Virus record (IMG/VR): IMGVR_UViG_3300036791_001907
Location: 32,001 to 96,000 of that record
Reading direction: 5' to 3' (one strand)
Length of the DNA stretch: 64,000 bases
Source of the DNA: a virus
The notes under the pieces are model-generated. The model searched no databases and was not told the origin of the DNA. It saw only the letters and a list, made by a program, of their open reading frames with translations. The stretch's first letter is position 1; each line of letters starts with the position of its first letter. Position numbers and translations under genes: made by a program. Below are positions 31,742 through 44,269 of this stretch, piece after piece.

Positions 31742-32275
31742 ATGCCATCGGGTGTCAAGAAGAAGTCATCAGCGCCGGCGCCGGCGCTCAAGTACGAGTT
31801 CCGGGCCTGCTTCCGGAGCCCGCTCGATCCCAACGTCGTCGCGGCGCGGCTCGAATGGCTCAGAACCAGACTGAGCCGGGACCCGGAGGGTCAGGACGTC
31901 CTGGAAGACGCCCGGCCCGTCGGCTCGCCGTTGCATGATCACTTCGACTGGAATGACTACGAGGCCGGCGAGAAGCATCGGCTCGGCCAGGCCACGGATC
32001 TGATCAACGCCATCCGGGTCACCGTTTACGTGGTGGCGAAGCCCAAGGGGCGGGTCAAGCAGCTGCTGCCGGCCTATGTCCGGCTGAAGAACCCCGCCGG
32101 TCGGCGCACCTTCGTCGCAGCGACCATCGCGACGGCAACGCCCCGGCGCGCAGAGACGCTGGCGGAGACCATCATTCGGTATGCACACATGGCGACTCGC
32201 GATCGCGCGCTCGGGCTCACCGAGCTGGATCCGCTGTTCGACGTGATTGATAAGTTGAAGAAGCGGTACGGCTGA
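31742..32275 (+). CDS. Accessory protein of the RAMP locus
   Basis: 177 aa; 'ARPVGSPLHDHFDWND.EAGEKHRL.QATDLINAI' is a phage hypothetical motif I recall next to such RAMP-like genes. Followed within 10 nt by a pseudoknot repeat. Confidence 0.7.
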   Translation: MPSGVKKKSSAPAPALKYEFRACFRSPLDPNVVAARLEWLRTRLSRDPEGQDVLEDARPVGSPLHDHFDWNDYEAGEKHRLGQATDLINAIRVTVYVVAKPKGRVKQLLPAYVRLKNPAGRRTFVAATIATATPRRAETLAETIIRYAHMATRDRALGLTELDPLFDVIDKLKKRYG

Positions 32276-42424: not shown

Positions 42425-42979
42425 ATGGAGCGACCCACACTCAAACGCGGCCTCGATCCGGCCGTCGTACTCTGGAACCCCAAGTACGTCCATAACCTGG
42501 CCGGCGCCATCCGGGCGGCCTCATGCTTCGGCGTTCCCCAGGTCTGGTGGACCGGCCGCCGGCTCGATGATGCGCTGTACTCGGTCGACCGGCTCCCCCG
42601 CGAGGAGCGGATGAAGGGTTATCGCGACGTCGCCTGGGGTCATACCTTCAGGCCGCTTGATCACTTCGACCGGGTAACCCCGGTGGCCGTGGAGAAGCGG
42701 GACCGGGCCGAATGTCTTACCGACTTCATCCACCCCGAGCGGGCCGTGTATCTTTTTGGCCCTGAGGACGGCTCGCTCCCCAAGGGACTGCTCCATGCCT
42801 GTCACCGCTTCGTCTGGATCCCCAGCGAGCAGTGCCTGAACCTGGCGGCCGCGGTCAATGTCGTCCTCTGTCACCGCCGGATCAGCCGCCAGCTTGCGGG
42901 TCTGGAGCCGCGGATCACCCTGGCCGAGACCCGCGGCTACGCCTCCACCATTGATGTCGCTGGCTGGGACGGCCGCTAG
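42425..42979 (+). CDS. SpoU/TrmH-family (SPOUT) RNA methyltransferase
   Basis: 'NPKYVHNLAGAIRAASCFG', 'YLFGPEDGSL', 'CLNLAAAVNVVL'. Confidence 0.9.
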   Translation: MERPTLKRGLDPAVVLWNPKYVHNLAGAIRAASCFGVPQVWWTGRRLDDALYSVDRLPREERMKGYRDVAWGHTFRPLDHFDRVTPVAVEKRDRAECLTDFIHPERAVYLFGPEDGSLPKGLLHACHRFVWIPSEQCLNLAAAVNVVLCHRRISRQLAGLEPRITLAETRGYASTIDVAGWDGR

Positions 42980-43462
42980 GCCGCCACCAAACCTGCGGGA
43001 GGATAGACGCAATGAAAACGGATCGACGGATGCTCCGCGGCGTGATCGAACGGGTCCGCGCCGCCGTGCCGAATGTGACCCGTGAGCGCCTGGCCGACAA
43101 GTTGCAGGAGCACTTCGATGCTGCCACCATTGCGGTCGAGCTGGACCTGGCCTTCGGCCCGCCCTGCGGACGGAAAGGGTGAGATCGCCTGTATGGCCAG
43201 CTGGCCGCCGGCGGTCTGCCGGGTTACATCGAATATCTCGAGGCAATTCGCCGGAGGACATGATGGCCAAGCCGAGGACCTACAAGGTCGCCGTCTACTG
43301 GCGCGACGACGAGCGGATCTGGCACCACCACGGCACCTGGGAGGGTGAGGCGAACAGTCCGGCCGACGCCAGGACGCGGGCGCTCAATGCGCTCGAGGAC
43401 GAGCGCATCGAAAGCTGGAAGGCCGAGATCATCGGCAGCAAACCAACCGGGAGTCCCAAGTC

Positions 43463-43804
43463 ATGAGTGAGGACAACATGGTCATCTTTGATCAGCGCAC
43501 CGGTACCGTGGTGGCCGATCCCCTGTGGGCCCCTTCGGTCCATGCCGGTCGTATTCTCCCCGACGGCCGCTGTCTACGGCTCATGGCGATGACCTACGGC
43601 AAGGTCCGGCTGACCCTCTCGGCGTCGCTGGACGCGTACGACTATCTCGACGGCTGGTGATACGACGGCATTCCCGCCGCGGTCGCGGCGCTCAACACCT
43701 GGGATCCGGCTGTGGATCCCGAGCCTTCAGGCTGGTACCGCAACCCCCTCTCGGGCCGCCGTCGGCCCGACGGCGACGCGTCCCGGGAATACGTGTGCTA
43801 CTAG
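43463..43804 (+). CDS. Small phage protein with in-frame TGA (43658-43660): candidate selenoprotein or nonsense pseudogene
   Basis: The frame continues after TGA as YDGIPAAVAALNTWDPAVDPEPSGWYRNPLSGRRRPDGD... to TAG at 43804; hairpin at 43675-43690. Confidence 0.6.
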
Positions 43805-43840
43805 GTGTCAGACATCGAAACCGAACCCGCGAGGTCAGCA

Positions 43841-44269
43841 ATGTCCAATACCGTGCGCACGACCATTTCGGTCCCACGGGCGCTCAAGGCACGGATGGAT
43901 GCCTATGAGCCGCCCATCAACTGGTCGGCGGTCGCCTGCCGCGCCTTCGAGGCGATCATCGGCATCGATGGTCCGCCCGGTTCCGATGCCGACATGACGA
44001 TCATCGAGCCGCATCCAGACGGCCATGGGGTTCGCCTGCTCGACCACGAGGATACGACTGAACTCCGGCGCAACATCGACGCTGGCCGGATCGTGGCGAT
44101 CTATGCCGGTGCCGTGGGCGACAACGTAGCTTTCGTACTCTGCACCAGTGCCGCATCGCTGCGCCAGTTCTTCGATGCTGCCATTGAAGCCGATTGCACT
44201 TACACGATCGAGGGTTGGAGCCGCGAGCCGTTGACTCTGAAGCCAGGCCAGCCCCACAATGACGCCTGA
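43841..44269 (+). CDS. Putative ribbon-helix-helix DNA-binding protein
   Basis: 'RTTISVPRALKARMD...INWSAVACRAFE'. Confidence 0.6.
   Translation: MSNTVRTTISVPRALKARMDAYEPPINWSAVACRAFEAIIGIDGPPGSDADMTIIEPHPDGHGVRLLDHEDTTELRRNIDAGRIVAIYAGAVGDNVAFVLCTSAASLRQFFDAAIEADCTYTIEGWSREPLTLKPGQPHNDA

Follow-up and report, generated by a model that had tools for sequence, protein, structure and literature searches.

Cells, and also a few animal viruses, are known to decode UGA as selenocysteine (Sec). The closest described systems to the locus discussed here are the bacterial genes with a SECIS inside the open reading frame, for which E. coli fdhF is the prototype (PMC4605307). In these genes the UGA occupies a position where homologs have Cys, the SECIS hairpin lies within the coding region just 3′ of the UGA, and TGA is otherwise a normal stop codon; the phage gene resembles them in all three respects. 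The bacterial SECIS has a stem of 6–8 bp, carries a conserved G in its loop some 20 nt past the UGA, and is bound by the winged-helix domains 3–4 of SelB (PMC4605307). The differences are that the gene described here is carried by a phage, that the DNA examined contains no Sec machinery, and that the gene is a candidate for a selenoprotein by sequence.

A review mentions a few viruses that redefine UGA as selenocysteine (PMC8310308). The glutathione peroxidase homologs of molluscum contagiosum and fowlpox viruses are like the phage gene in being virus-encoded UGA-Sec genes that rely on the Sec machinery of the host. They are captured host enzymes that use a 3′-UTR SECIS and SBP2, whereas the phage gene belongs to a phage-specific family and has what appears to be a bacterial-type SECIS within its reading frame. 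Members of the same family that have Cys in place of the UGA are found in cultured phages (Caulobacter Bertelyvirus BL47 gp271c and CcrBL9 gp257c, and Sinorhizobium phage Phosso). They match the gene studied here in length, in the motifs W-C/U-Y and EP.GW.RHP..GRRR, and in being surrounded by small genes, but their codon at this site is TGC or TGT, they lack a hairpin at a constant position, and all are annotated as hypothetical. A full-text literature search found no description of a bacteriophage-encoded selenoprotein, and to our knowledge the phage family is not among the known selenoprotein families.

The DNA analysed here (the window) is a stretch of 64,000 nt, from position 32,001 to 96,000 of the IMG/VR record IMGVR_UViG_3300036791_001907. 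The record comes from a soil metagenome and is 161,481 nt long with 65% G+C; it is classed by IMG/VR as a provirus, with a CheckV completeness of 78%. The relevant features of the window, and two tRNA arrays in related phages, are as follows.

42425–42979, + strand: SpoU-family RNA methyltransferase gene (PF00588, 47.7 bits)
43263–43466, + strand: upstream small gene (alternative start GTG 43179; no Pfam family)
43450–43454, + strand: GGGAG, Shine–Dalgarno-like, 8 nt 5′ of the ATG (read from the sequence)
43463–43804, + strand: proposed recoded gene of 113 codons (ATG 43463, UGA as codon 66, stop TAG 43802–43804)
43658–43660, + strand: in-frame UGA, proposed selenocysteine codon (residue 66, motif W-U-Y-D)
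43661–43801, + strand: 47 sense codons past the UGA (YDGIPAAVAALNTWD...REYVCY), followed by the TAG
43675–43690, + strand: SECIS-type hairpin (6-bp G+C stem, 43675–80 with 43685–90; GGUC loop, 43681–84)
43805–44269, + strand: downstream gene (start GTG 43805 or ATG 43841; no Pfam family)
L077 (G006:C1:110000-129999): tRNA array of a related phage, 45 genes
L078 (G007:C1:35000-40000): tRNA array of a related phage, 29 genes

The 65-aa ORF at 43463–43660 closes with ...YDYLDGW-TGA. If the TGA is read through, then the peptide around it is ...LDGW-U-YDGIPAAVAALNTWDPAVDPEPSGWYR, where U is the proposed Sec. A previous reading of this DNA, made from the sequence alone, had proposed a selenoprotein here; the positions that it gave, 43463–43804 for the whole and 43675–43690 for the hairpin, are correct. 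The TGA is at 43658–60, and the open frame described past it is confirmed, with 47 sense codons leading to the TAG at 43802–43804. The gene sits in a row of small + strand genes which also contains the SpoU-type methylase gene, about 480 nt to the 5′ side. The TGA stop of the upstream gene overlaps the ATG of the recoded gene (ATGA, 43463–66), and the downstream gene begins immediately past the TAG of the read-through frame. A gene that ended at 43660 would leave a gap of 144–180 nt within a tightly packed gene row. The same locus occurs in a separately assembled Logan contig, from which an identical 65-aa product has been called, ending at the same TGA. The stretch is present in one soil-metagenome DNA sequencing run, possibly that of the sample from which the record derives, and no RNA sequencing run is among the matches listed.

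TGA is in general a stop codon in this phage. In the 161-kb record it is the commonest stop, closing 125 of the 191 ORFs that are 120 aa or longer and have high GC3. It also ends 16 of the 23 IMG/VR genes that have the internal TGA (referred to here as TGA forms), 45–48 codons past that internal TGA. The code has therefore not been reassigned, which bears out the earlier statement that the recoding is not genome-wide. The upstream gene gives a local example, since it ends at a TGA and so TGA terminates translation only 190 nt 5′ of the recoded TGA. The whole record was scanned for in-frame TGA codons with coding potential on both sides, and the recoded gene is the sole site that has a strong hairpin at nt 24. 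One other TGA stop, outside the window (G000:C1:149999), is followed at nt 25 by a G+C-rich hairpin whose stem has 11 bp and whose loop has 3 nt; the frame downstream of it is not coding-like, and this is probably an ordinary terminator rather than a SECIS. No tRNA of any kind was found in the 161-kb record, and the arrays of 45 and 29 tRNAs in two TGA-form phages contain no UCA anticodon. A possible tRNA-Sec in the record of a relative was rejected: it scores 45.6 bits, below the cut-off of 47, and is a tRNA-Tyr.

The codon at the UGA column was read in related loci. Scanning IMG/VR with the family alignment yielded 64 loci, and in all the codon was read in 70 loci, of which 24 have TGA (including the window's own copy), 27 TGC, 12 TGT, 4 GAC and 2 GAA or GAG, the last one being a remnant. 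A scan of species-representative genomes added six contigs from metagenome-assembled genomes (MAGs), four with TGA and two with Cys. Of the 76 loci, 28 thus have TGA at the column (27 distinct forms, counting the window), 41 have Cys, 4 Asp and 2 Glu, while the remnant lacks the UGA column. The 26 distinct TGA forms besides the window consist of 22 from IMG/VR and 4 from MAG contigs. They are 40–52% identical to the window's protein, so that TGA recurs at the same codon in well diverged sequences. Matches to cultured phages in a tblastn search (Caulobacter Bertelyvirus phages and Sinorhizobium phage Phosso) span the TGA and have Cys (TGC) at the column. The sequence-only reading had placed the TGA at a Cys position on the strength of a motif of similar small phage proteins. 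The motif is real: the consensus of 56 members is Y.D.WCY.....A..AL..WDG...GEPEGW.RHP.TGRRRP.GD, and the claim for Cys holds in the 41 loci with TGC or TGT, with the six Asp or Glu loci as exceptions.

A maximum-likelihood tree groups 21 of 22 TGA forms in a single clade (support 93/93), although with 110 columns the support values are rough. The clade also contains four Asp forms and two Cys forms. The TGA form that falls elsewhere (L023), from a complete 191-kb phage with terminal repeats (3028; G007), is placed among the Cys forms, and its hairpin is atypical, with a 4-bp stem and an 8-nt loop. This form may reflect another, independent change from Cys to Sec, or an artefact of the tree. 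Asp is found at the column in L030, L039, L061 and L068 and Glu in L005 and L048; four of these six relatives are inside or beside the TGA clade. The occurrence of Asp or Glu in six relatives indicates that the column is not an obligate redox Cys throughout the family.

The frame past the UGA is under protein-level constraint. All TGA forms that are not cut by a contig end have 45–52 open codons after the TGA, continuing to a homologous C-terminus. An alignment of 18 TGA forms has 16 invariant columns, of which 12 fall 3′ of the UGA (A73, E87, P88, G90, W91, R93, P95, G98, R99, R101, P102 and G104); E109 is a further conserved residue on that side. AlphaFold2 was used to predict the structure of the 113-aa read-through product, using a 56-sequence alignment with Cys substituted for the UGA residue. 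The model is a single domain with a mean pLDDT of 92.3 and a pTM of 0.84, in which residue 66 lies in a β-strand (63–67) that is followed by a helix (70–79). A one-domain fold that runs across the UGA counts against a split gene or a pseudogene. One related locus (L006:185-340, on a JGI contig of 997 nt) consists of the C-terminal half alone, with an identical hairpin (CGCCGCGGTCGCGGCG) and with neither the N-terminal half nor the TGA, and it is adjoined by a divergent gene on the minus strand. It looks like a rearranged remnant, or else a C-terminal ORF that exists by itself and may start at a TTG at 185.

The hairpin consists of CGCCGC (43675–80), the loop GGTC (43681–84) and GCGGCG (43685–90). 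The first G of the loop is 20 nt past the A of the UGA, or nt 24 counting from the U. The SECIS of E. coli fdhF has the same apical loop, GGUC. With its 6-bp stem and loop G at 20 nt, the hairpin agrees with the general description of bacterial SECIS elements (PMC4605307). A search of the region 43400–43900 against Rfam, with E values up to 10, gave no SECIS family and only a weak match to radC (17 bits against a cut-off of 40). Among the 27 distinct TGA forms, the loop starts at nt 24 in 23 and at nt 23–25 in all but one, and 17 have GGUC in the loop; a few TGA forms have other loops, such as AAUU in L011 and the 8-nt loop of L023. In a subset of 23 distinct TGA forms (window included), the loop of the strongest hairpin starts at nt 23–25 in 22, and at nt 24 in 19, and GGUC is present in 14. 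The TGA forms from MAGs were found later and played no part in defining this pattern; all four of them have the hairpin at nt 24, three with GGUC. By contrast, no constant hairpin position is seen in the 34 Cys forms: the loop starts of their strongest hairpins are scattered from nt 10 to 45, and the mean hairpin score is 17.3 in TGA forms vs 12.1 in Cys forms.

Covariation was tested on an ungapped 60-nt alignment of TGA forms, using an 8-bp helix. Base pairs are formed in 76.6% of the cells, compared to 34–65% when the 3′ partner is slid by 1–3 columns. The covariation score is 0.363, as against 0.202 for shuffled alignments, and none of 500 shuffles reached as high a value. Changes on both sides occur in five of the eight pairs (25 cells). 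Two of these pairs (columns 30-45 and 33-42) are formed by third positions of Ala or Val codons, where G-C, C-G, A-U and U-A replace one another. Such covariation between synonymous positions cannot result from selection on the protein. Together with the lack of a fixed hairpin in Cys forms, this implies that the hairpin is under selection as RNA and goes with the UGA. The UGA and the hairpin are conserved, and the hairpin covaries, across diverged phages, and this supports a genuine programmed UGA recoding element. The hairpin first noted as SECIS-like from the sequence alone therefore stands, its position being conserved and its changes compensatory, with no hairpin at that position in Cys forms. 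The sequence-only reading had set two outcomes against itself, namely that no other homolog has TGA here and the hairpin is not conserved, or that the aligned residue is not Cys. Neither holds.

The Sec machinery, if it is used, has to come from the host. No selB, selD or tRNA was found in the record, whose ends carry no recognisable host genes, and its terminase has only distant cultured relatives, in phages of Bacillus, Vibrio and Salmonella (22–29% identity). Four MAGs that carry related TGA forms were examined; phage contigs are not reliably binned in MAGs, and errors may go either way. The sequence-only reading had pointed to selA, selB, selC and selD of candidate hosts as a check, and in the relatives' MAGs the set is present in three of four. 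These are the Thermomicrobiales, Chloroflexota and Bryobacteraceae MAGs, in which selA, selB, selD and tRNA-Sec all score above curated cut-offs, while selA, selB and tRNA-Sec were not found in the Peribacteria MAG. They were likewise not found in the Agitococcus MAG, which has a Cys form and is the only Cys-form MAG tested. The Peribacteria TGA form (L073, G002:C5) has a proper hairpin with an AGUU loop at nt 24, in a candidate-phyla-radiation bin. Its 62-kb contig is probably a mis-binned phage genome; otherwise it is a counter-example to the Sec reading.

The Bryobacteraceae contig (G004:C27, 117 kb; L079, L081, L080) has its TGA form at approximately 42 kb. Its first 20 kb are phage-like, with 63.6% G+C and with tail-sheath-like and FtsK-gamma proteins, and the stretches examined from 60 kb onwards are cellular, with 58–60% G+C, and encode PolA, a SurA-like isomerase, a NupC nucleoside transporter and PSD/PSCyt proteins. 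The contig is a prophage–host junction, which physically links a TGA form to Bryobacteraceae DNA. In a sample of 41 Bryobacteraceae genomes, 38 have selA above the cut-off. In the Chloroflexota (L084, G003:C2) and Thermomicrobiales (L086, G001:C80) MAGs, selD is itself a TGA gene (...GAG-U-A..), in which the hairpin loops are CGUGA and (G)GUC(C). These host selD genes are similar to the phage gene in having an in-frame TGA and a G+C-rich hairpin with the same two loop types. They differ in that their loops are about 34 nt past the UGA rather than 20 nt, and in being cellular housekeeping genes.

Taking these results together, we consider it quite probable that 43463–43804 is one gene of 113 codons, coding for a small single-domain phage protein in which the sole Cys conserved in the family has been replaced by a UGA-encoded selenocysteine. 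The inserted residue is most probably Sec, judging from the Cys alignment and the form of the hairpin. It is likely, too, that this came about within one clade of a phage-specific family of more than 1000 members, which turned its single Cys into Sec by means of its own bacterial-type SECIS and the SelA, SelB, SelC and SelD of the host. In the mechanism that we propose, host SelB carrying Sec-tRNA(Sec), made by SelA and SelD, would bind to the hairpin at 43675–90 through its GGUC loop. Binding would coincide with the arrival of the ribosome at the UGA, where SelB would compete with RF2 to deliver Sec. If SelB, tRNA-Sec or selenium were missing, the gene would give only the 65-aa N-terminal fragment, and the output of full-length protein would hence be tied to a Sec-competent host and to the supply of selenium. 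The phage would contribute no Sec machinery of its own.

Several other explanations were considered. One is that the TGA arose by nonsense mutation as a provirus decayed, or that TGC or TGT was misread as TGA in sequencing or assembly; in its favour, TGA is one base from either Cys codon and the record is classed as a provirus. It is effectively refuted by the recurrence of the same TGA in 26 other distinct and diverged forms, with downstream frames that are intact and conserved, and by the same stop in a separately assembled contig; we reject it as having a negligible probability. Reassignment of TGA to sense throughout the genome, as in code 4 or code 25, has the open frame in its favour and nothing more. 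It is rejected as equally negligible, given that TGA closes more of the likely genes than any other stop does (125 of 191), that the upstream gene and 16 of 23 TGA-form genes also end with it, and that no suppressor tRNA was found. A split gene, in which the 65-aa ORF functions alone or with a separately initiated C-terminal peptide, would agree with the reporting of the 65-aa ORF by gene callers, and with the C-terminal half that stands alone in L006 with its possible TTG start. It is nevertheless very improbable: the Cys forms are single genes, the first start codon past the TGA in the window is the GTG at 43712, the AlphaFold2 model forms one domain across the UGA, and neither the fixed hairpin nor the constraint on the UGA would be explained.

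The remaining alternatives accept that the UGA is decoded, and concern the residue inserted. Sec-like tRNAs with the anticodon UCA that are charged with Cys or Ser are known in some soil bacteria, and a non-canonical tRNA of this kind might decode the UGA with the help of the hairpin as Cys or Ser. This would preserve the Cys of the family, and the candidate hosts are indeed soil Acidobacteriota and Chloroflexota. We regard it as improbable, since no UCA anticodon was found in the window's record or in the two tRNA arrays, and three MAGs have ordinary selA, selB, selD and tRNA-Sec. Programmed read-through or regulated termination without Sec is also unlikely, if less so. Here the hairpin would slow or stall the ribosome, so that Trp or Cys enters through a near-cognate tRNA, or a fixed ratio of 65-aa to 113-aa product is set. 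The conserved UGA and hairpin show programmed decoding and not the identity of the residue, and neither selA nor selB is present in one MAG that carries a TGA form, both of which leave room for such a process. We know of no hairpin-stimulated UGA read-through of this kind established in bacteria. On the other side, the UGA falls exactly at the Cys column, which is the classic signature of Sec; the size, spacing and G-containing loop of the hairpin are those described for a SelB-bound SECIS (PMC4605307); the phage loops match those that follow the UGA of the host selD genes; and the full Sec machinery is present in three of four MAGs. Both read-through without Sec and decoding by an unusual tRNA fit the alignment with Cys and the SECIS-like hairpin less well than Sec does.

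If the selenocysteine reading is true, then viruses of bacteria encode a selenoprotein family, and phages exploit the recoding machinery of their hosts, so that a complete phage proteome needs a trace element. Part of the phage programme would depend on selenium and on a Sec-competent host, for which Bryobacteraceae and Chloroflexota are the candidates. The UGA and SECIS would double as a marker of host range, and may aid host prediction for uncultured phages. It would also mean that gene callers systematically truncate such genes, as in this case, where the call stops at a 65-aa fragment and misses 47 conserved codons. The switch between Sec and Cys would be a natural experiment on the role of the one conserved thiol in an unannotated family, and the UGA with its hairpin would form a compact and testable element for the study of SelB specificity in poorly studied soil phyla.

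The function of the protein was approached through sequence, structure and gene context. The window's protein has no match in Pfam or PHROG, and a Pfam search with 56 relatives also gave nothing. Matches to PHROG 24748, which is unannotated, were obtained for 22 of the 56 aligned relatives (best E 1.6e-13); the window's protein itself does not match, but its homology to the matching relatives is clear from the alignment across the TGA. In a metagenomic protein collection the family has more than 1000 members, all unnamed and without Pfam domains. The AlphaFold2 model had no Foldseek match in the PDB at E 0.001 or better; its best VIA-align wide score was Z 4.8, with only generic β-sheet and propeller matches, and a sequence profile search of the PDB gave nothing better than E 0.17. 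A search of the ESM Atlas with a natural Cys homolog (P0007) returned only unnamed, mostly viral clusters. Across the loci, no conserved gene neighbour hints at a function. One family member is located on a plasmid of Skermanella rosea.

The recoded position is the only family-wide Cys. It lies beside an invariant Trp in a β-strand, and the protein also has an Arg-rich GRRRP.GD loop. Because there is one conserved Cys/Sec, which is Asp or Glu in some clades, the site might be a nucleophile or a ligand-binding residue, rather than one of an obligate redox pair.
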